Of a stretch of DNA of 10,809 nucleotides, positions 1 to 10,809 are shown in pieces. How positions within the stretch are numbered: position 1 is the stretch's first letter; each line of letters opens with the position of its first letter. The translations under genes were made by a program, and so were the position numbers. The DNA is from a virus. Lineage: Duplodnaviria > Heunggongvirae > Uroviricota > Caudoviricetes. The DNA is taken from the IMG/VR virus record IMGVR_UViG_2648501437_000027; one strand, given 5' to 3'. Below the pieces are notes generated by a model, which saw only the letters and a list, made by a program, of their open reading frames with translations, ran no database searches and was not told the origin of the DNA.

Positions 1-141
1 TTACTGCTTACACTGTAAGAACGCCGCAAACTCCGCTCCCCAGAAGCTCATCCGTATTTCGCACAGCGAACCGTGCAGCATCCAGATGATGAGGATTGCC
101 GTCACGCAGAACGTGATGGCCGTAAGCGATTTTTGCGACAT
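1..141 (-). CDS. Hok/Gef-family type I toxin (small membrane peptide), 46 aa
   Basis: Reverse-strand translation from ATG at 141 to TAA at 3-1 gives MSQKSLTAITFCVTAILIIWMLHGSLCEIRMSFWGAEFAAFLQCKQ. It has a single hydrophobic helix followed by SLCEI and a C-terminal AAFLxCK, matching the Hok family pattern as I recall it (e.g. HokA SLCEL...ELAAFLACK). Identity rests on memory, not a search. Confidence 0.6.
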   Translation of the reverse strand: MSQKSLTAITFCVTAILIIWMLHGSLCEIRMSFWGAEFAAFLQCKQ

Positions 142-2084: not shown

Positions 2085-3191
2085 TTAGGTCTGCGCAATC
2101 CATTCAGGGATTTTTGTTTCAAGTTCAAGCTGCGTGGTATAACCGCTGTTATCAATGGTGTGCTCGGCTTTTGCAATAATCCAGTCCTGATTATCAATCT
2201 CGCTTTTAAATCCTGTTACCGTGCCATGCATTTCGGGGTAGAGTTCTGCACGTCCACGCGCCAGCGTGATGGAAAATGATGCGGCTCCGCGTTGTAGTTG
2301 CTGCCACTTTGCCGCCGCTGCGCGTCTTGCTGCCTGCTCGTTCTGATAAGTCTTGCGTAACACAAACACATTGCCTTCCGCGCCTTCCATATAATCACCT
2401 TCACGGCTGCTGCTTTTCTCCTTTTTGGGTTTTGGCGGTTTGCGGCGTTTCACGCTGACTTTTTTCTTTTTCCCGTAATTAAGATCAAGCCAGTAAGCGC
2501 GTACCCCCGTATACGCCTCGCGGTCAGCAATGCGGAACTGATGGCGATCGCCGCTGCTGCGTGTGATGGCGAACGATGGCAACGGCTGGCCCTGTGCGTT
2601 CACGCCACCGCCTGGCATGATGAATAACAGATTGCCGCTTTTTACCGTGGTGATTGCGCCCAGCATTTCCGCCATGCGCGTAAGGAAGGACATGTCGCTT
2701 TCTTCGGTCTGGTCGGCGTGGTCGATTTCGATATCCATCAGCATTTCGCTGATTTGCGGTTTCAGACCATACCGATGAGCGATGGCGGATACCACACGCT
2801 CAACGGTCACATCATGCCAGGACACCTCACGTTTAACGTTAAATTCATCCCGAAAATCTGCGCTTCTGGCCGAAACAGTCAGCCTGTCCGGCGGTCCTTC
2901 GTGAGCGATTTCATCAACAATGTAAGTGCCTTTTTCTGTCAGCGGTTCTCCTTTCCAGCCAATGAGAACCGTCAGGCGCGCGCCCCGTGGCGGTAGCTGC
3001 AACTGACCATCCGCATCATCCAGCGTGATGGTGAGCTGGTCCGCTTCAAATCCCCGGTTGTCGGTCAGTGACAGACTCATCAGGCGCTCTGCCACGCCGG
3101 ACAGCGTTTCCCCCTCCGCGAGAATATCAAAATCCGGCATTTTCACGGGGTCTGTGCTCTGACTGAGCAATTGCATGGTGGTGTCGGTCAT
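2085..3191 (-). CDS. D: P2 gpD-like tail/baseplate hub protein (late control gene D), 368 aa
   Basis: Translation (…LSLTDNRGFEADQLTITLDDADGQLQLPPRGARLTVLIGWKG…) resembles P2 gpD. Start placed at ATG 3191 (MTDTTMQLL…), which has a GGGAGGG SD about 7 nt upstream on the minus strand; the longer ORF to 3323 lacks an RBS. Confidence 0.85.
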   Translation of the reverse strand: MTDTTMQLLSQSTDPVKMPDFDILAEGETLSGVAERLMSLSLTDNRGFEADQLTITLDDADGQLQLPPRGARLTVLIGWKGEPLTEKGTYIVDEIAHEGPPDRLTVSARSADFRDEFNVKREVSWHDVTVERVVSAIAHRYGLKPQISEMLMDIEIDHADQTEESDMSFLTRMAEMLGAITTVKSGNLLFIMPGGGVNAQGQPLPSFAITRSSGDRHQFRIADREAYTGVRAYWLDLNYGKKKKVSVKRRKPPKPKKEKSSSREGDYMEGAEGNVFVLRKTYQNEQAARRAAAAKWQQLQRGAASFSITLARGRAELYPEMHGTVTGFKSEIDNQDWIIAKAEHTIDNSGYTTQLELETKIPEWIAQT

Positions 3192-3348
3192 CTGTTCCCT
3201 CCCTGTGCGGCATGGTCGCATGTGCGTGCGGAGGGGGTTACTGCTTTTTGTTGTCGCCGTGGCGGGAGAACGGCGCAGGGGTGAGATTACGCGCGTGGTG
3301 GGTGATGATTGTTGCCGAATCATTTAACGGATACAAGGGGCTGAAGCT

Positions 3349-4533
3349 ATGAGTGAAACTCGTTTTCATGGTGCCCGTGTTACGGAAAATACCGACCTGG
3401 TAACAGCGATTAATGATGTTGATTCCAGTGTTATCGGTATCGTGGCAACGGCGGATGATGCGGACGCGAAGCTGTTCCCGCTGAACAAGCCCACACTGCT
3501 GACCCGCGTCAATGACGTGCTGGGAAAATGCGGGACAACGGGGACGCTTTATCGTGCGCTTAAGGCCATCGCAGACCAGGTGAGCACAAAGGTGATCGTC
3601 GTTCGCGTGGCTGAACACAAAGAAGAAGGCGGTAAGACGCAGGATCAACTGGTTATCGGTGGTTCTGAATCTGACGGCAGCTATACGGGGATGTATGCGC
3701 TGCTTGTTGCAGAGCAGGATGAAAGCATCGGATACCGTCCGCGTATTCTGGCCGCGCCGGAGCTGGACACGGAGGCGGTGACAAAATCCCTGTGCGTGAT
3801 TGCGGGTAAGCTGCGCGCGTTTGTGTATGCCTCATGTCACGGCTGTAACACGATGGCTGAGGCGATTACCTACCGCCAGAAATTCAACGAACGTGAAGTG
3901 ATGCTCTTATGGCCGGACTTCATCGCCTACAACCCAAAAAGTGGCGAAAACGAAACGTTCCCCGCGCCTGCCTATGCGTGCGGCCTTCGTGCGTACATTG
4001 ACCATGAGCAGGGATGGCACAAATCACTGTCCAACGTTCCGGTCAAAAATGTGCTGGGAATGTCCAGGCATGTGTTCTGGTCGTTGCAGGCCGAAGACAG
4101 TGATGCCAACAGCCTCAATAACAAAGAAATCACGACCATTATTCGTCGCAACGGGTTCCGCTTCTGGGGCAACCGCACACCGGAAACGAACGCCTACATC
4201 TTTGAGGTGTATACCCGAACCGCACAGGTGCTGGCTGATTCAATTGCGGAAGCGCAGTTTGAAACCATCGACAGTCCACTGACGCCTGCGAACGTGAAAG
4301 ATGTTATCAGTGCCATCAGGGCAAAACTGGATTCGCTGGTGACAGCCGGGAAACTGATTGGGGCGTCGTGCTGGTATGACGTGGTGGATAACGGCACCAC
4401 GGATTTACGTCAGGGGCGTGTGCGTATTCGCTACAAATATACGCCCGTTCCGCCACTGGAAGACATGGAGCTTTACCAGACGTTTACTGATGAATACTTT
4501 GGCCCCGCATTTGCGGTGCTGGGAGGTGCCTGA
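3349..4533 (+). CDS. FI: Contractile tail sheath protein (P2 FI-like), 394 aa
   Basis: Length and multiple conserved blocks (FPLNKP, KLRAF, WPDF, EQGWHK-LSNV, RRNGFRFWGNRT, YTRTAQV, YTPVPPLE) match the P2 FI sheath family. RBS upstream of ATG 3349. Confidence 0.9.
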   Translation: MSETRFHGARVTENTDLVTAINDVDSSVIGIVATADDADAKLFPLNKPTLLTRVNDVLGKCGTTGTLYRALKAIADQVSTKVIVVRVAEHKEEGGKTQDQLVIGGSESDGSYTGMYALLVAEQDESIGYRPRILAAPELDTEAVTKSLCVIAGKLRAFVYASCHGCNTMAEAITYRQKFNEREVMLLWPDFIAYNPKSGENETFPAPAYACGLRAYIDHEQGWHKSLSNVPVKNVLGMSRHVFWSLQAEDSDANSLNNKEITTIIRRNGFRFWGNRTPETNAYIFEVYTRTAQVLADSIAEAQFETIDSPLTPANVKDVISAIRAKLDSLVTAGKLIGASCWYDVVDNGTTDLRQGRVRIRYKYTPVPPLEDMELYQTFTDEYFGPAFAVLGGA

Positions 4534-5045
4534 TGGCTGTGCCAAAACATCTTCGCTTTTTTACGCTGTTTGTGGATGGTGAAAACGAAGTGGGTAAGGT
4601 GACGTCCGTCACTCTGCCTAAACTGACGCGCAAAACCGACAGCTACCGGGGTGGTGGCATGATGGGTGCGGTAAGTATTGATCTCGGTCTGGACGACTCC
4701 GCGCTTGATGCGAGCTTTGTCATGGGGGGCGCAGTTCGTGCGCTGTTCCTTAAGTATGGCGGCACGATTGACGGCACGCTGCTGCGTTTTGCGGGTGAAT
4801 ACTACACCGATGCAGAAAGCGACCTGTATGAAGCCGAAATGCGCGGACGTGTGACGGAAATTGATATGGGGGAAGCCAAACAGGGCGAAGCCACATCACA
4901 CACTTACGCTGTCAAAAACACCTACTACAAGCTGAGCGTTAACGATCGCCCGCTGTGGGAAATCGACCTGTTGAACCACATCTACCGGAAGGACGGCAAG
5001 GACATTGTGCCTGACCGTATCCGTTCCGCGCTTGGGCTTGGCTGA
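4533..5045 (+). CDS. FII: Tail tube protein (P2 FII-like), 170 aa
   Basis: ATG overlaps the FI stop (TGATG) and is preceded by GGAGGT. Size and position immediately after the sheath gene are as in P2 FII. Confidence 0.88.
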   Translation: MAVPKHLRFFTLFVDGENEVGKVTSVTLPKLTRKTDSYRGGGMMGAVSIDLGLDDSALDASFVMGGAVRALFLKYGGTIDGTLLRFAGEYYTDAESDLYEAEMRGRVTEIDMGEAKQGEATSHTYAVKNTYYKLSVNDRPLWEIDLLNHIYRKDGKDIVPDRIRSALGLG

Positions 5046-5100
5046 TAAGTAATATGCAGGCGGCGCAGTGCGTCGCCTCTGACTGAAAAGGAGACAACTG

Positions 5101-5475
5101 ATGAAAGACATCGATACTGAAACCCGGAATAACACCGTGGCGGATGATGTGACGGCAGGTGAGGATATGGCTGTCGAACGTGGCGTAAAACTGACCCGAC
5201 CAATTGAGCGTGGTGGCGAAAAAATCACGTATGTGGAGATCACCGGGGCTATTGAGCAGGCTGGATCCCTGCGTGGTCTGTCGCTGTCTGATGTGCTGAA
5301 TCTGAAAGCGGATACCATGTTCACGCTGTTGCCTCGCGTGACCTCGCCACGACTGGATGAAGTGATGATTAAAAAAATGTCGTCACGCGATTTTATTCAG
5401 TTGTGCGCTGTGGCTGTAAATTTTATGAGCGAGCCAGACTCTGGCGCGAAGAGCGTGCAGGAGACGGCAGCGTAA
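5101..5475 (+). CDS. E: Tail assembly chaperone gpE (zero-frame product), 124 aa
   Basis: ORF preceded by AAGGAG, positioned between tube and tape-measure genes, with an overlapping downstream -1 frame exactly as in the P2 E/E' and lambda G/GT paradigm. Confidence 0.8.
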   Translation: MKDIDTETRNNTVADDVTAGEDMAVERGVKLTRPIERGGEKITYVEITGAIEQAGSLRGLSLSDVLNLKADTMFTLLPRVTSPRLDEVMIKKMSSRDFIQLCAVAVNFMSEPDSGAKSVQETAA

Positions 5476-5639
5476 TCACCCTGGTGTGCTTTGAGCACAT
5501 CGAAGATCTGGTGGCGGATATTGCCGCCATTTTTAACTGGTCGCCCGCCGAAATCTTCATGATGACGCCCGGCGAAGTGGTTAGCTGGCGTGAGCGGGCG
5601 GCACTTCGCAGCGGGAATGCAGACAATGAAGACTCTTGA
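5373..5639 (+). CDS. E' extension: -1 frame read after a programmed frameshift in E, giving an E+E' fusion of about 179 aa
   Basis: The -1 frame is closed by TAA at 5370-5372 and open from 5373 to TGA 5637-5639, so any shift must occur within the A7 run at 5371-5377. The E' frame ends 12 nt after the likely T start. Confidence 0.65.
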   Translation, partial: KNVVTRFYSVVRCGCKFYERARLWREERAGDGSVITLVCFEHIEDLVADIAAIFNWSPAEIFMMTPGEVVSWRERAALRSGNADNEDS

Positions 5640-8439
5640 TATCCGGGTCGCTTTCAGCGCCGTTGACAGGCTGACCCGGCCTGCCGAAAACGCCCGCCGC
5701 CTGATGGGGCAGTTTGGTGACTCCATCCAGCGAACGCAGGGGGCGATCAAAAATCTCGAGCGTCAGGCGCGTTCATTTGAGCGCGCCCGTGACGCTGTCA
5801 GTAAAGCGGATGCTGGCATATTGAAAGCGCGACGCCAGCTTAACGCCCTTAATCAGTTACAACACACGGGTACAGTGCTCAGCGAAAAACAACAAAAGCT
5901 GATGCAGCAGTTAAGCACCCGGCTTGAACGCCTGAATGAATCGCGCACACGGGAGATTCAGAAAATGCGGGAGCTTGGCGGAGAGCTGAAACGCCACGGC
6001 ATTTCCCTGACAGGCAGCGATAACACCATTCAACAGGCCATCAGACGCACCGAACAGTACAACAACCAGCTTGAACGCGAACGGCAGGCGCTTGCGCGTG
6101 TAACGCGGGCGCGTGAGCGGTATTCGCGCGCGCAGGAAACCGCGGGAAAACTGAAAACAGGTGGTGCACTGGCAACAGGTGCGGCAGCGGCGGGCGGCTA
6201 TGCTGCCGGGCGTTTTTTGCAGCCCGCGATTGGGTTCGGGAAAGAGATGTCCCGCGTTCAGGCACTGACGCGAATCGACAAAAACAGCCCACAGTTTAAG
6301 GCGCTGCGTGAGCAGGCGTTAAAACTTGGCTCTGAAACGCAGTTCACCGCTGGAGATGCCGCCAGTGGACAGGCATTTCTTGCAATGGCTGGTTTTACTC
6401 CGCAGGCCATTCAGGCTGCGCTTCCCGGCGTGCTGAGCATGGCAACGGCTGGCGGTATGGATCTCGGCGAGACGGCGGATATTGGCTCAAATATCCTGAC
6501 GCAGTTCGGCCTCTCTGCTGACCAGATGGACCGGGTTGGCGACACGCTTACAGCGGCGTTTACCCGTACCAACACTGACCTTCGCGCGCTGGGCGAAACC
6601 ATGAAATATGCAGGTCCGGTGGCGGGTAAGCTGGGAATATCGCTGGAGCAGGCCGCTGCGATGGCGGGCGTGCTGGCGAATATGGGCATCAGAGGGAGTG
6701 ATGCCGGGACGGCAATGCGCGCCAGCCTGGCTCGTCTGGCATCACCGCCAAAGGCGGCAGCAGAGGCGCTGAAAGAGCTGGGTGTGGCTGTCTCTGACGC
6801 GAACGGCAAAATGCGCCCGATGGAGGATGTACTGGCCGACCTTTATAAAGCCACCCGCAAATACGGGGAAGTTGACCGGGTATCGTTCTTTAAGGACATT
6901 GCCGGAGAAGAGGCTTTCACATCGTTTATGGCGCTCGTTGATGCAGCGGGTGACGGCTCCTTACCCAAACTGAGAAAAGAACTTGAAGGCGCGCGCGGTG
7001 AGGCTGAACGCACAGCAAAGGTTATGGCCAACAACCTTGACGGTGATCTGAAATCACTCGGCAGTGCATGGGAAGGGTTGCGCATCCGCATTGCAGATCT
7101 GATTGACGGTCCGCTGCGTTCTGTCACGCAGTGGCTCACGCGGGTGGTATCAAAGGTGACGGCGCTGGCGCAGGCCCATCCGGCACTGACGCGCCAGCTA
7201 CTGATTGCAGGTGGGGCATTGCTGGCGATGACTGCAACGGTCGGCTCGTTGTCGTTGGCTATTGGTGTGCTTGCTGGCCCGCTGGCAAAACTGCGTCTTG
7301 GCTTTTCCCTCCTGACCGGATCAATGAATGCTGTCAGGCTCCTGCCAGCACTATGGGGAATGGTGACGGGTTCCGTTTCGTTACTGGGGGGCGCTATCGG
7401 GGCGCTGTTCAGCCCGGTCGGATTGATTGCTGCTGCGTTTGTGGCTGCGGCGGTTCTCATCTGGAAATACTGGGAACCCATCAAGGCGTTTTATGCAGGG
7501 GTGTTCAGTGGGATTATGGAACGGCTGGCTCCGTTGCGCGAAACCTTTGAACGGTTCGGTCCAGTTTTTGATGTCGTGCGCGATGGGATTATTCAGGTCT
7601 TTAACTGGTTTAAATCGCTGCTGTCACCGATGGAGTCCAGCAAGGAAACGCTGGATAAATGTACCAGTGCTGGCGAGGTATTCGGCAGGGTACTCGGTGG
7701 AGCGATAGAGCTTGTCCTGACGCCAACAAAAGCATTGATGGATTCACTGGCGTGGATACTTGAAAAGCTCGGAGTGCTTCCGGATGAAGCGGAACGGGCG
7801 AGAAAGAAAATAGAGAACGCTTCAAAGGCTCCTGTAATGTGGGAATGGGATCCGGTTCTCAAGAAAATGGTTCAGAAACCATGGACTCCCGGCCCGGCCC
7901 CGTCAGATAAGGTCGACGACAAAAAAGGCGATAAACCCAGAGACAACAAACCGCTCACAGACAACAATACCGGTACGCTACGCAGACTCAGCAAAATTGC
8001 TGATAACACAGGTAAGCTGGTTGATGAGACGAAAAAACGCATTGGCCCCGGCGATATTGTCTTTAAGAACCTGCCCCGCGCACTTGCTGTTCGTGGGGAG
8101 TGGCAGGAGCGGAAGATTGCGCAGGTCAGTAAGCCTGCCCCCGCAATTACTATCACACCCGTGGTTCCGGCTCCGCTGCCTCCGGCGCTGGTCCCTGTTG
8201 TTGCGGCCAGCTCCCGCCCGGTGGCGGAGGCTATACGATCGCCAGTGGCATCAGTTCCTGCAACTTCCCGTAACCGGGAGCCTGTTGCCTCCGGATTTGG
8301 CGGTGAAATTCATGTTCATCTGCATAACGTTGTTACACAGAATCCCCGCGAACTGGCGAAACTGGTTGGCGAAATGGTCAGGGCAGAAATGGAACGGCGC
8401 GCCCGTGCCGGGCGTGGCAGTTTTTACGATAAAGATTGA
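5626..8439 (+). CDS. T: Tail tape measure protein (P2 gpT-like), about 937-949 aa depending on start
   Basis: Very long ORF following E/E', with a coiled-coil-like N-terminal part, a central Ala/Gly-rich region, hydrophobic segments (LLIAGGALLAMTATVGSLSLAIGVLAG) and a Pro/Ala-rich C-terminal region, typical of tape measure proteins. Start ambiguous among GTG 5590, ATG 5617 and ATG 5626. Confidence 0.88.
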   Translation: MKTLDIRVAFSAVDRLTRPAENARRLMGQFGDSIQRTQGAIKNLERQARSFERARDAVSKADAGILKARRQLNALNQLQHTGTVLSEKQQKLMQQLSTRLERLNESRTREIQKMRELGGELKRHGISLTGSDNTIQQAIRRTEQYNNQLERERQALARVTRARERYSRAQETAGKLKTGGALATGAAAAGGYAAGRFLQPAIGFGKEMSRVQALTRIDKNSPQFKALREQALKLGSETQFTAGDAASGQAFLAMAGFTPQAIQAALPGVLSMATAGGMDLGETADIGSNILTQFGLSADQMDRVGDTLTAAFTRTNTDLRALGETMKYAGPVAGKLGISLEQAAAMAGVLANMGIRGSDAGTAMRASLARLASPPKAAAEALKELGVAVSDANGKMRPMEDVLADLYKATRKYGEVDRVSFFKDIAGEEAFTSFMALVDAAGDGSLPKLRKELEGARGEAERTAKVMANNLDGDLKSLGSAWEGLRIRIADLIDGPLRSVTQWLTRVVSKVTALAQAHPALTRQLLIAGGALLAMTATVGSLSLAIGVLAGPLAKLRLGFSLLTGSMNAVRLLPALWGMVTGSVSLLGGAIGALFSPVGLIAAAFVAAAVLIWKYWEPIKAFYAGVFSGIMERLAPLRETFERFGPVFDVVRDGIIQVFNWFKSLLSPMESSKETLDKCTSAGEVFGRVLGGAIELVLTPTKALMDSLAWILEKLGVLPDEAERARKKIENASKAPVMWEWDPVLKKMVQKPWTPGPAPSDKVDDKKGDKPRDNKPLTDNNTGTLRRLSKIADNTGKLVDETKKRIGPGDIVFKNLPRALAVRGEWQERKIAQVSKPAPAITITPVVPAPLPPALVPVVAASSRPVAEAIRSPVASVPATSRNREPVASGFGGEIHVHLHNVVTQNPRELAKLVGEMVRAEMERRARAGRGSFYDKD

Positions 8440-8451
8440 GGAGTCATGGCC

Positions 8452-8940
8452 ATGATGATGATCTATGGCATGTTTGTTTTTGAGCTGCGCACGCTGCCGC
8501 ATCAGCAGTTACAGCAAAACAAAAGCTGGCGGCATGTGAAAAATGAACGCGTTAACCGTTCAGCAAGCTGGCAGTATATCGGCGCAGGTGATGATCGCAT
8601 CGTGCTTTCCGGCGTGCTTTATCCTGAAATTACAGGTGGCGAAGTGTCGCTTTCGTTGCTGACCACGCAGGCATATACAGGACGCCCCTGGCCTCTGATT
8701 GATGGTGTCGGGCAGATTTACGGCATGTATGTACTGACTGAAACGAATACGACCCGTTCCGAGTTTGATCGCTACGGCAAGGCGAAAAAGATAGAGTTTT
8801 CACTGACCCTTGAACGCTGTGATGAGGATTTGCGGGAGCGCCTGCAATCCTCATCGTTCAGCGATATGCTGTCCGGCTTCAAAGATAAGGTCACATCATC
8901 CCTTAACAGCGCGGCCAGCTCCGTTAAAGGGCTGTTCTGA
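8452..8940 (+). CDS. U: Tail protein gpU-like (tail terminator/tail completion), about 162 aa
   Basis: Begins MMMIYGMFVFEL…, resembling the P2 gpU N-terminus as I recall it, and sits directly after T. GAGGAG lies 8 nt upstream of ATG 8452; the earlier ATG at 8446 is too close to the SD. Confidence 0.82.
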   Translation: MMMIYGMFVFELRTLPHQQLQQNKSWRHVKNERVNRSASWQYIGAGDDRIVLSGVLYPEITGGEVSLSLLTTQAYTGRPWPLIDGVGQIYGMYVLTETNTTRSEFDRYGKAKKIEFSLTLERCDEDLRERLQSSSFSDMLSGFKDKVTSSLNSAASSVKGLF

Positions 8941-8951
8941 TTTAACACAAA

Positions 8952-8986
8952 AACCGCTAATGGCCAGATTAGCGGTTATTTTGTTT
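8952..8986. terminator. Bidirectional intrinsic terminator between convergent U and the invertase gene
   Basis: Perfect 10-bp stem AACCGCTAAT (8952-8961) / ATTAGCGGTT (8968-8977) with a 6-nt loop, followed by ATTTTGTTT on the plus strand and by TTTTTGTGTT on the minus strand. The invertase stop codon (8971-8969) lies inside the stem. Confidence 0.65.
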
Positions 8987-9559
8987 ACTCTTCTCAATTG
9001 TTCCACTTGATTCTCCTGCGGGGTGGTAACGATAAATTGTCGATATACCAATGCTGTAAATTATTGCCAGTTGTTTTCTGTCGTGACCGTTTTTAATCAG
9101 CCTTGCTATTTGCTCATGCTGTTCTTTTGTCAGCTTCGGTCGACGTCCGCCTGTGCGCCCCCGTGCGCGCGCTGCCGCCAGTCCGGCCAGTGTACGTTCA
9201 ACAATTAATTCACGTTCCATTTCAGCCAGGGCACCCATCACGTGGAAGAAAAAACGCCCCATTGGAGAAGATGTATCTATGCTGTCGGTCAGACTACGAA
9301 AATTAATCCCTCGCTCCCGTAGTTCCCCGACGAGAGAAATCAGATGTTTCATGCTTCGCCCGAGGCGATCCAGTTTCCAGACAACCAGCGTGTCACCTTG
9401 TTGAAGGCGCTTTAAAGCGCGTTTTAATCCCGGTCGGTCAGTCTTTGTCCCGCTTAATTTATCTTCAAATATTTGTTCACATCCTGCACAAACAAGAGCG
9501 TTTCGTTGCAGGTCTGTATTCTGGTCATTTGTTGATACCCTTACATAGCCAATCAGCAC
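8969..9559 (-). CDS. Serine DNA invertase of the Gin/Cin/Pin/Hin family, about 196 aa
   Basis: Translation LIGYVRVSTNDQNTDLQRNAL…VVWKLDRLGRSMKHL… is near-identical in its N-terminal catalytic region to Mu Gin as I recall it, including the catalytic Ser in VRVSTNDQ. Start placed at GTG 9559 (aligns with the Gin N-terminus MLIGYVRVS), with GGGAGA SD upstream; the ORF-track start at 9583 is also GTG. Confidence 0.9.
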   Translation of the reverse strand: MLIGYVRVSTNDQNTDLQRNALVCAGCEQIFEDKLSGTKTDRPGLKRALKRLQQGDTLVVWKLDRLGRSMKHLISLVGELRERGINFRSLTDSIDTSSPMGRFFFHVMGALAEMERELIVERTLAGLAAARARGRTGGRRPKLTKEQHEQIARLIKNGHDRKQLAIIYSIGISTIYRYHPAGESSGTIEKSKQNNR

Positions 9560-9613
9560 GCTGAATCTCCCGTCCAAAAGCACAAATCATGCCATGCAGG
9601 CCAGAAACCGCCA

Positions 9614-9639
9614 TTATCTAAAACCTCGGTTTACAGGAA
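9614..9639. other. gix/cix/hix-like 26-bp crossover site for the invertase (boundary of an invertible tail-fibre segment)
   Basis: TTATCTAAAACC-TC-GGTTTACAGGAA: two imperfectly inverted 12-bp half-sites with identical inner AAACC/GGTTT around a 2-bp core. As I recall it, it differs from the Mu gix sequence by about one base. It lies 55 bp from the invertase start. Confidence 0.75.
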
Positions 9640-10809
9640 ACGGTAAATCAGGCTTCTGGTGCATTACAGAAAAACCAGAACGGCGCAGATATTCCCGATA
9701 AAAAACTATTCCTGCGTAATATCGGCACAACAAATTCAACAACCATGTCTTTTAGTGGTGGTGCTGGATGGTTCAAACTGGCAACTGTAACAATGCCACA
9801 AGCCAGTTCCGTGGTTTACATAAGCCTGATTGGTGGCGCAGGGTATAACGTTGGCTCCTCGCATCAAGCAGGCATCTCTGAGCTGGTTCTGCGTGCAGGA
9901 AATGGGAATCCAAAAGGCATTACTGGTGCATTATGGCGACGGACATCGGTTGGATTTACTAATTTTGCATGGGTGAATACATCCGGTGATACCTATGATG
10001 TTTATGTTGAAATAGGTAATTACGCCACAGGTGTTAATATTCAGTGGGATTATACCAGTAACGCCAGCGTAACGATTCATACATCACCATCTTATACAGC
10101 GAATAAACCAACAGGTCTGACAGATGGAACTGTATATGTAATTTACAGTTCGCACATTAAACCGACTGCTGCTGAGGTTGGGGCGTTGTCATTATCTGGC
10201 GGTCAATTGAATGGTGCACTGGGCATCGGAACATCCAGTGCTCTTGGCGGTAACTCGATTGTTTTAGGAGATAACGATACCGGGTTTAAACAAGGTGGTG
10301 ATGGGGTGCTGGATGCTTATGCTAATGGTTCGCATGTATTCAGCTTTAGAAGTGGTTCAGCAATATCATTTAAGGGTATTCAGGCTGGGGAAAGTAAGCT
10401 ATTCACTCTTTCAAGTGCAAATAACTCTGCCTGTAATGCATCATTTAACTTGTGGGGAAATTCGTCAAGACCAACTGTTGCAGAGCTTGGTGATGATTCA
10501 GGCTGGCATTTCTATAGTCAGCGAAATACAGATAACTCAGTGATATTTGCTGTAAACGGTCAGATACAACCAAGCAACTGGGGTAACATTGATTCCCGCT
10601 ATGTGAGAGATATCAGACTTGGTTCACAGCAATATTATGGAGTGAACAACTGGCAAACATGGAATTTCCAGTGCCCTTCAGGTCATGTACTGTCTGGTAT
10701 AAATGTTCAGGATACAGGGTCCCACTCTGCCGATAATATAGCTGGCGTTTATTACAGACCTGTTCAAAAGTATATAAATGGCACCTGGTATAATGTAGCG
10801 AGCGTTTAA
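9622..10809 (+). CDS. Tail-fibre variable C-terminal segment (Sv'/H'-like), currently in the silent orientation; no start codon of its own
   Basis: The frame opens immediately after a TAA (9619-9621) inside the gix-like site and runs to TAA at 10807-10809. Gly/Ser/Asn/Thr-rich with a …YYRP…NGTWYNV… C-terminus typical of enterobacterial phage tail-fibre tips. The first ATG (9745) has no RBS, consistent with expression only after fusion to a constant N-terminal part upon inversion. Confidence 0.75.
   Translation, partial: NLGLQETVNQASGALQKNQNGADIPDKKLFLRNIGTTNSTTMSFSGGAGWFKLATVTMPQASSVVYISLIGGAGYNVGSSHQAGISELVLRAGNGNPKGITGALWRRTSVGFTNFAWVNTSGDTYDVYVEIGNYATGVNIQWDYTSNASVTIHTSPSYTANKPTGLTDGTVYVIYSSHIKPTAAEVGALSLSGGQLNGALGIGTSSALGGNSIVLGDNDTGFKQGGDGVLDAYANGSHVFSFRSGSAISFKGIQAGESKLFTLSSANNSACNASFNLWGNSSRPTVAELGDDSGWHFYSQRNTDNSVIFAVNGQIQPSNWGNIDSRYVRDIRLGSQQYYGVNNWQTWNFQCPSGHVLSGINVQDTGSHSADNIAGVYYRPVQKYINGTWYNVASV

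Follow-up and report, generated by a model that had tools for sequence, protein, structure and literature searches.

Genes and strands at the locus

The window analysed here, a whole stretch of 10,809 nucleotides, covers the end of a P88-like (Xuanwuvirus) prophage of the P2 family that carries the tail and late-control genes. All genes of a P2-like tail module are present (FI, FII, the E/E′ -1 frameshift pair, T, U, D and ogr), and every one of them has a Pfam match. On the minus strand, ogr (332-592) codes for the late-gene activator with an Ogr/Delta zinc finger (PF04606 Ogr_Delta, E=5e-14) and is 98% identical to an unannotated ogr downstream of D in P88. Gene D, coding for the tail/baseplate hub (2085-3191, minus strand; PF05954 Phage_GPD), is separated from the rest of the F operon. 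Over residues 1-368 the D protein is 98% identical to the D protein of P884B11; its identity to P2 gpD is 48%. The D reading frame is open as far as 3323 (2085-3323, minus strand), upstream of the presumed start codon; translation most likely starts with the ATG at 3191, preceded by GGGAGGG as ribosome-binding site. With this start the gap between D and FI is 157 bp long (3192-3348).

The plus strand carries the genes for the tail sheath, FI (3349-4533; Pfam sheath domains, 98% identity to P88), and the tail tube, FII (4533-5045; PF04985 Phage_tube, E=1e-45), followed by E (5101-5475; Phage_TAC_7). The E+E′ product would be made by a -1 frameshift (5101-5639; Phage_P2_GpE match on the ORF 5403-5639), for which A_AAT_TTT at 5418-5424 is a candidate slippery heptamer; both the heptamer and the frame relation were read from the sequence. 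The tape measure gene T (5590-8439, plus strand; PF10145 PhageMin_Tail, E=2e-58) probably starts with the ATG at 5626, which overlaps the end of E′ as in the P88 annotation. U (8446-8940, plus strand; PF06995 P2_GpU, E=6e-39) is the final gene of this block and is separated by 28 bp (8941-8968) from a convergent gene for a Gin/Hin-type serine DNA invertase (8969-9559, minus strand; Pfam Resolvase and HTH_7), which lies in an ORF from 8969 to 9583 with an ATG at 9559. Between the two genes a terminator scan of both strands found a bidirectional terminator-like hairpin (8952-8977, inverted repeat I7) with an A-run before and a T-run after it, overlapping the stop codon of the invertase gene. The F transcript may now end at this predicted two-way terminator after U. 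In the window no tRNA genes were found and no Rfam family matched.

These Pfam assignments agree with an earlier note on this DNA, which had placed D, ogr and the invertase on the minus strand and FI-FII-E/E′-T-U (3349-8940) on the plus strand. The canonical co-directional order FI-FII-E-T-U-D-ogr is thus absent from the window, and comparison with the P2 record bears out that a conceptual flip of 3349-8940 regains it. Since the departure from the P2 order is common to a whole clade, as described below, it does not exclude membership in the Peduoviridae.

Distribution of the divergent layout and direction of change

The window aligns with P88 in one collinear place at about 95% nucleotide identity (95-96% over 75% of the window); the remaining 25% consists of the cargo insert and the fibre variable region. 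It differs from P88 in the tail-fibre variable segment and between D and ogr, where a low-GC insert of 1.5 kb takes the place of about 42 bp. This insert carries an orphan ORF of 386 amino acids (794-1954). Collinear matches of about 95% identity were obtained with P88, P884B11, Shae_phiSM and 520873, and in nucleotide identity and collinearity with P88 or P884B11 the window agrees with Xuanwuvirus. The ICTV criterion for a genus is at least 70% nucleotide identity over the whole genome, of which the window covers 10.8 kb. The annotations of the matching phages read G, invertase, U-T-E-FII-FI on the opposite strand, and D.

An assembly artefact, which the earlier note had considered, is excluded by the recurrence of the same D-FI junction in complete E. 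coli genomes and in phages that were isolated and sequenced. Of 1370 complete E. coli genomes with a match, 1356 have this junction intact; roughly one in four of all complete E. coli genomes carries it. The U-invertase junction was found in 631. No orientation polymorphism was seen among the matching E. coli genomes, and the small number of partial matches represent truncations. Further genera with this layout are Senquatrovirus (SEN5) and the Klebsiella phage genera Reginaelenavirus and Reipivirus. Among 80 loci taken from GTDB species representatives, the layout is divergent in 59 and canonical in 14; it was divergent in all 59 classifiable loci whose D protein is at least 60% identical to that of the window. 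The split between the layouts tracks protein identity to the window, with 60-98% for D and 54-98% for FI in divergent loci versus 48-53% and 45-50%, respectively, in canonical ones. In IMG/VR, 79 of 80 loci are divergent. The divergent loci come from about 27 genera, and the loci closer to P2 are all co-directional.

A recent rearrangement in this genome, or an error of assembly at 3192-3348 and 8941-8968, has next to nothing in its favour: the one point for it is the departure from the textbook order of P2, and it is already refuted by the universality of the two junctions in the complete genomes and by a layout that independently sequenced phage isolates and loci of about 27 genera have in common. 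The synteny comparison proposed earlier showed that close relatives universally have the same layout, which the earlier note itself had named as the outcome that would speak for a lineage feature and against a rearrangement. The layout is therefore a fixed character of the clade and does not reflect an event in this genome. An ancestral inversion that left D in need of its own promoter and a lineage with a distinct layout, offered as separate explanations, turn out to be one and the same, and this explanation is supported by the relatives as well as by the species-representative and IMG/VR loci.

The ingroup alone gives no direction of change, because only two states exist, and on this ground the divergent layout could be ancestral and the co-directional FETUD order of the P2 type derived. 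We consider this very improbable. All sampled outgroups are co-directional, namely Pseudomonas phage Dobby (Citexvirus), Mannheimia phage phiMhaA1 (Baylorvirus) and the VHML-like Vibrio phage VP58.5, whose D protein is only 35% identical; P2 is co-directional as well. In addition, the divergent state is limited to a single tight identity cluster of D, FI and U. The data point to a single, ancient inversion by which a clade is defined. It would have turned the block PF-FI-FII-E/E′-T-U around once, in the ancestor shared by a large group of Peduoviridae of the Enterobacterales; one breakpoint would lie immediately upstream of the Ogr box belonging to the F promoter and the other between U and D. 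This clade would comprise Xuanwuvirus, Senquatrovirus, Reginaelenavirus, Reipivirus and many prophages. The comparison shows that the inversion has been fixed in the clade since its origin.

The inversion is not mentioned in the papers on P88, SEN4/5 and the C. rodentium prophages, and literature searches on Xuanwuvirus and on P2-like inversions gave nothing relevant. For annotators and prophage-typing tools, D divergent from FI is the normal signature of the large P88/SEN4/Klebsiella-type clade and should not be flagged as a rearrangement or assembly error. A tail module with the inverted block is no new kind of system; it is an unremarkable trait of a lineage, of modest interest for the way in which D would be regulated.

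The invertase and the tail-fibre switch

The invertase gene abuts U, and the tail operon would be phase-variable if this enzyme inverted the 5.6-kb FI-U block reversibly, as a programmed switch. The positions of the recombination sites speak against this. The earlier note had found no gix-like site at either junction, which we confirm; the sole gix-like site of the window (TTATCTAAAACCTCGGTTTACAGGAA, 9614-9639, plus strand) lies just past the invertase gene, on its far side, so that the FI-U block is not flanked by such sites. This site has one mismatch to the sequence that we take to be Mu gixL and that served as the gix reference, with 0 matches expected by chance. The search for short inverted repeats at both junctions, also suggested earlier, yielded none beyond chance, and no inverted repeat pairs 3192-3348 with 8941-8968. 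Moreover, the orientation is invariant in all genomes and loci examined, and the same layout occurs without an invertase in SEN5, APEC17, O157:H7 and most IMG/VR loci. A phase-variable tail operon is thus extremely improbable.

Instead, the invertase serves the Mu-type gix/tail-fibre segment to its right. The gix site is followed by an alternative C-terminal tail-fibre segment in the invertible region (9640-10809, plus strand; PHROG tail-fibre families, E down to 1e-82), the frame of which is open from the gix site, and the P88 annotation has the same arrangement. A serine invertase, an adjacent gix site and an alternative fibre C-terminus, the components of a tail-fibre switch, are therefore all found within the window; the second gix site would lie beyond it. 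The invertase gene and its flank are 92-96% identical in nucleotide sequence to gin of Mu and D108, and the match to Mu spans the annotated boundary of the Mu G segment. As in the Gin/G-segment system of Mu (also P1 Cin and e14 Pin), the alternative fibre C-terminus is located on the opposite strand beside the invertase. Unlike in Mu, the switch has been added to a tail-fibre operon of the P2 type; not all members of the clade possess it, and it plays no role in how FI-U is oriented. The invertase gene adjoins U in only 10 of 68 IMG/VR loci, and the presence of the layout in many relatives without the gene shows that the invertase is unrelated to the FI-U block. It belongs to an optional Mu-like tail-fibre switch in the cargo slot between U and the tail-fibre genes.

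The D-FI gap and its predicted promoters

FI-U lies on the strand opposite to D and ogr, so D cannot be part of the F transcript. The earlier note had reported that the D-FI gap contains no Ogr-type dyad. This holds for the exact pattern TGT-N12-ACA, which is absent from 3192-3348, but relaxation by one base revealed TGT-N12-AGA at 3252-3269. This core, centred at 3261, is part of a predicted Ogr-type activator box TTGTTGT-N12-AGAAC (3248-3271, plus strand), which matches five of the six half-site bases of TGT-N12-ACA and whose position relative to a transcription start is predicted. In late promoters that depend on Ogr/Delta, the dyad is centred near -55. The bare 6-base pattern is common, with 5 copies in the window compared to 9.4 expected, and the lone copy in the gap is meaningless without comparative data. 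Since the bare pattern is not significant alone, we drew on the conserved position of the box and on its 12-base form. Relatives have either the perfect TGT-N12-ACA or the AGA form at the same place, and about 57 of the 65 loci compared contain a single TGT-N12-AC/GA box per gap (loci without an exact match are L026, L030, L031, L047 and L055). Across loci the gap is 145-164 bp long, and the distance between the box centre and the ATG is 78-88 bp for FI and 66-82 bp for D. P88 contains precisely two copies of the 12-base form TTGTTGT-N12-AGAAC, one each in the P-O and FI-D gaps, compared to 0.19 expected; none of 100 shuffled sequences reached two.

Conserved candidate -10 elements were found on both sides of the box. 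On the FI side, the predicted -10 hexamer of PF is GATGAT (3304-3309, plus strand) with a predicted transcription start at about 3316. The corresponding motif xAxxAT, at +43 to +48 from the box centre, is conserved in the divergent loci (A in 57/59, A in 58/59, T in 57/59) and in 10/10 canonical loci, and its offset agrees with the annotated P2 promoters pF and pO. On the D side, a predicted extended -10 of PD, TG-c-GACCAT (3212-3220, minus strand), consists of GACCAT at 3217-3212 and TG at 3220-3219, with a predicted start at about 3205. The mirror-image xAxxAT lies at -44 to -49 from the box centre (A in 56/59, A in 46/59, T in 53/59 divergent loci). In the 10 loci with canonical layout, which served as a control, the D-side hexamer is not conserved; its conservation is confined to the inverted clade. 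On each transcribed side, a -10 element that is spaced from the box as in P2 is thus conserved in 46-58 of 59 loci.

Because this mirror-image geometry copies the activator site that pP and pO share in P2, we infer that D has its own late promoter PD, which would share a single Ogr box with PF in a bidirectional late promoter PD/PF. The inversion would have severed D from the FETUD transcript and brought its start to a distance of about 70-80 bp from the Ogr box, which has dyad symmetry. D would now be transcribed from PD, with PF serving the FI side, both from the box centred at 3261. The mechanism, which the earlier note had left open, can thereby be replaced by a specific model. P88 and phiSM are reported to be viable and inducible (PMC5285337, PMC6456863), which means that D must be expressed in the inverted layout. 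PD and its dependence on Ogr are deduced solely from conservation; the PD hexamer GACCAT is weak, and at about 14 nt the predicted leader of D is short. The compared loci are related by descent, and conservation around the box could partly be due to inheritance rather than selection; that the N12 spacer and the flanks of the box are largely randomised among them counts against mere inheritance.

The layout could also be fixed in the clade with D driven by an Ogr-independent promoter in the gap or expressed at a low constitutive level. The weak PD hexamer and the non-canonical form of the box in the window would fit this, as would a conserved alternating-GC block at -38 to -31 that could bind another factor; the P2 record, furthermore, annotates -35/-10 signals of ogr separately from the activator sites of the late promoters. 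We nevertheless regard it as unlikely. The D-side -10 keeps a fixed position of -44 to -49 from the box centre, mirroring PF and the P2 promoters pP and pO, and in about 27 genera the distance between the D ATG and the box is held at 66-82 bp despite diverging surroundings. Late in infection, P2 requires D protein in stoichiometric amounts with its other tail proteins.

A single ancestral FI-U inversion, fixed in the clade, together with a D gene on a late promoter that shares the Ogr box of FI, is very probably the best explanation of the whole. With somewhat less confidence, but still as the probable course of events, we propose from these sequence comparisons that the ancient inversion split the essential gene D from its operon and that D was rescued by two-sided use of the dyad-symmetric Ogr site of pF, resulting in a second late promoter that works in both directions (PD/PF), after the pattern of pP/pO. 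If true, this would be a natural case of an activator site co-opted to drive a stranded gene, and the clade would have five Ogr-dependent transcription units compared to four in P2. An operon gene that was inverted out would have been kept under the same late control, and the bidirectional promoter with a shared activator site is a precise and cheaply testable prediction.

The closest known systems are the phages of Xuanwuvirus (P88, P884B11, Citrobacter phage Shae_phiSM, 520873 and 500465-2), which are collinear with the window over ogr-D-FI…U-invertase at 93-96% nucleotide identity and identical to it in gene order, strands and the 157-bp D-FI gap with its box. The F operon of P2 (FI FII E E′ T U D) contains the same gene set with 33-48% protein identity, and its promoter pF likewise has an Ogr-type box, with its centre about 83 bp before the FI start codon, and a -10 at +43 to +48. 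In P2, unlike in the window, the operon finishes with D, which overlaps U at its end, and ogr comes next. The proposed PD/PF pair resembles pP/pO of P2: a single box in a divergent gap of roughly 155-175 bp is flanked by mirror-image -10 hexamers. According to the P2 record, one activator site serves both promoters, with starts 56 and 55 bp on either side of the centre, which we placed at 3072; the -10 hexamers at the same offsets are likewise our own reading. Starts about 55 bp on either side of the box centre are thus annotated for pP/pO and predicted for the window. The P-O gap of P88 contains the same TTGTTGT-N12-AGAAC form, including the AGA. The window differs from pP/pO of P2 in that the pair served is D and FI instead of P and O, that the starts are predicted, and that the arrangement would be secondary, brought about by inversion.

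Gene order in the window and among its relatives

The gene map of the window was drawn from the ORF listing and Pfam scans. The minus strand carries ogr (332-592), D (2085-3191) and a serine invertase gene (8969-9559), and the plus strand FI (3349-4533), FII (4533-5045), E (5101-5475), E' (to 5639; Pfam GpE ORF 5403-5639), T (5590/5626-8439), U (8446-8940) and a tail-fibre C-terminal segment (9640/9745-10809). An earlier note on this DNA was right in all its coordinates and strands, in the 157-bp gap between D and FI (3192-3348) and in the convergent U/invertase pair. Judged against the P2 record and the protein matches, exactly the block from FI to U has changed orientation with respect to D and ogr, as proposed there. 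The E frame contains a candidate -1 slippery heptamer, A_AAT_TTT (5418-5424), at which slippage would join E to the GpE-domain frame ending at 5639 (E+E'), as in P2. Since the D frame is open for 44 codons 5' of its probable start, to an ATG at 3323 (3192-3323, minus strand), spanning the promoter region, gene callers may over-extend D to 412 amino acids. The P88 annotation places a 43-aa "hypothetical protein" (gp50) within the D-FI gap.

The window matches Escherichia phage P88, Xuanwuvirus P884B11, Citrobacter phage Shae_phiSM, 520873 and 500465-2 with 93-96% identity, in single collinear places. The annotations of these phages have the same order as the window: V W J I H G, an invertible fibre segment and the invertase, followed by U T E' E FII FI on the opposite strand, D and then ogr. 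With a 451-bp probe, the D-FI junction was found whole in 1356 of the 1370 matching complete E. coli genomes (collection of 5426 genomes). A probe across the U/invertase junction was whole in 631 E. coli genomes; in approximately 700 more the match ends just past the U stop codon, because another gene (e.g., an acetyltransferase gene) occupies that place. The collinear phage matches and the whole junctions across E. coli therefore exclude both a misassembly at the junctions and a rearrangement private to the window's genome. Synteny thus has the outcome which the earlier note had set against a rearrangement: the inverted layout is common to the close relatives.

Many E. coli genomes carry the element as a decayed remnant. 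D is cut down to a 789-nt fragment in APEC17 (L005 11085-11926), and in O157:H7 strain 2149 IS3-family elements stand in place of D and ogr (L006 2043-3620) and also break the fibre region; T carries a frameshift there. A copy of the prophage region with 96-98% identity is present on a contig of 226 kb (NZ_JBQPOM010000071.1) that is labelled as the Firmicute Vagococcus sp. WN89Y; contamination or a mislabelled assembly probably accounts for this copy of an enterobacterial prophage region.

Ranked by D-protein similarity, the next relatives belong to the genera Reginaelenavirus and Reipivirus (Klebsiella phages, 70-72% identity) and Senquatrovirus (Salmonella phage SEN5, 62%). The FI-U block is inverted in all three. 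To survey the layout, one genome per GTDB species was scanned with a D alignment and the 80 best loci were classified by tblastn. FI and D are divergent in 59 of these 80 loci, with three more partial contigs being consistent, and the canonical order of U then D was found in 14, plus four partial ones. The divergent loci span approximately 27 genera of Enterobacterales, including Salmonella, Klebsiella, Enterobacter, Citrobacter, Serratia, Erwinia, Pantoea, Pectobacterium, Brenneria, Yersinia, Xenorhabdus, Photorhabdus, Providencia and Morganella. Protein identity to the window separates the two classes completely, with 60-98% (divergent) versus 48-53% (canonical) for D, 54-98% versus 45-50% for FI and 52-99% versus 38-49% for U. 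Among the nearest 80 IMG/VR loci 79 are divergent, and the 80th has the same orientation with a bigger gap. The outgroups Pseudomonas phage Dobby, Mannheimia phiMhaA1 and Vibrio VP58.5 are co-directional, as is P2. The clade-wide divergent layout and the co-directional outgroups bear out the ancestral inversion or distinct lineage layout considered earlier, the simplest reading being one inversion in the clade ancestor, fixed ever since.

An Ogr-type box and paired predicted -10 hexamers in the D-FI gap

The earlier note had reported that the D-FI gap contains no Ogr-type dyad. An exact TGT-N12-ACA is indeed absent from the gap, but TTGTTGT-N12-AGAAC is present at 3248-3271 (box centre 3261). 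The 6-base core alone is not significant, with five copies in the window and 9.4 expected. P88 (35.8 kb) has just two copies of the 12-base form, one within the divergent P-O gap and the other within the FI-D gap; 0.19 copies are expected, and two or more were found in 0 of 100 shuffles. Exactly one TGT-N12-ACA or -AGA per gap is found in approximately 57 of 65 divergent-layout loci. In such loci the gap is confined to 145-164 bp and the distance from the box centre is 78-88 bp to the FI ATG and 66-82 bp to the D ATG; the N12 spacer varies freely.

The 59 unique gaps of divergent loci were stacked on the box centre, with 10 canonical-layout loci as control. On the FI side the stack shows xAxxAT at +43 to +48 (A 57/59, A 58/59, T 57/59), and on the D strand its mirror image at -44 to -49 (A 56/59, A 46/59, T 53/59), with a conserved TG ahead of it at extended -10 spacing. 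All 10 canonical loci have the identical FI-side hexamer, and their far side is without conservation; therefore, the second -10 is present only where D sits. Two further blocks are conserved in the stack: CA.GCGCGCG.G on the D side (window 3219-3231), the CA of which gives the TG of the extended -10, and GCGTGA on the FI side (3279-3284). Three lines of evidence, the 12-base counts in P88, the positional conservation and the flanking hexamers, make the 6-base core meaningful.

In the window, the predicted FI-side late promoter (PF) has the -10 GATGAT at 3304-3309 and a predicted start at approximately 3316; its D-side counterpart (PD) has GACCAT at 3217-3212 and a predicted start at approximately 3205. 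The predicted D leader is approximately 14 nt long, with GGGAGGG ahead of the D ATG at 3191. Box and hexamers are conserved in sequence and geometry, from which we infer that PD is a real promoter activated by Ogr. One Ogr-type box would then serve both PF and PD.

The slot beyond U and the accessory genes

A search for short inverted repeats, as suggested in the earlier note, found none in the window that pair the two junctions of the FI-U block. Likewise, no gix site was found there: the single gix-like site of the window (9614-9639; no match expected by chance) lies beyond the invertase, on the side away from the block. It is one base off the Mu gixL sequence. An open frame runs from this site into the plus-strand tail-fibre segment. 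Fibre segment and invertase are arranged as S' and gin are in Mu; identity to Mu and D108 across the region is 92-96%. Many relatives have the inverted layout without any invertase, and in IMG/VR just 10 of 68 loci have it beside U. The space from U to the fibre genes is a slot with several alternative occupants, of which the invertase is one. The slot up to the tail-fibre assembly gene is variable clade-wide (window 8941-9640; APEC17, L005 17926-18623; O157:H7 strain 2149, L006 9192-9964), and in E. coli contains a Gin-like invertase in 631 genomes and, e.g., a transferase or serine O-acetyltransferase in approximately 700 others. Between the convergent U and invertase genes the terminator scan found a hairpin (8952-8977) with a 10-bp stem, an A-run before and a T-run after it, terminator-like on both strands, which overlaps the invertase stop codon (8969-8971).

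P88 has approximately 42 bp between D and ogr, whereas the window has a 1.5-kb insert filled by a plus-strand ORF (794-1954) of 386 aa with approximately 32% G+C (phage genes approximately 55%). Searches of Pfam, NCBIfam, PADLOC and PHROGs gave no match to its product, the family of which comprises approximately 120 clusters of "hypothetical proteins" in Gammaproteobacteria and beyond. Invariant residues include S53, C54, D56, W57 and R141...H147, and one might conjecture from the R141-x5-H147 spacing a resemblance to the HEPN motif. The AlphaFold (AF2) model is confident (pLDDT 88.7) and has no significant neighbour in the PDB. In Edwardsiella a homologue occupies a variable site within an SXT/R391-type conjugative element, and one in Photobacterium adjoins a Card1-type nuclease gene. 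The ORF is a candidate for an accessory or defence function. At the end of the prophage, on the downstream side of ogr, lies a 46-aa Hok/Gef-family toxin ORF (1-141, minus strand; MSQKSLTAITFCVTAILIIWMLHGSLCEIRMSFWGAEFAAFLQCKQ), for which P88 and APEC17 have the same annotation; Rfam gave no hok/sok RNA match there.

Comparison with P88 and P2

The element belongs to the P88-like phages. P88 and phiSM have been reported to be inducible or spontaneously active (PMC5285337, PMC6456863); the inverted layout is therefore functional. The layout is already public in annotated genomes, and no publication discussing it was found in the literature searched. The sole new element is the shared-box promoter predicted for PD and PF. 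The tail module of the window is P2-family in content, not in order, and the slot between U and the fibre genes holds the position of the Z/fun cargo slot of P2. The P2 record gives the divergent pP and pO promoters a single activator site. With its box centre placed by us at 3072, the mapped starts (3016 and 3127) are at distances of 56 and 55 bp, and the pP and pO -10s, as we read them, have the same offsets as those of the window. The geometry matches, and the D-FI gap may work like the pP/pO region of P2.
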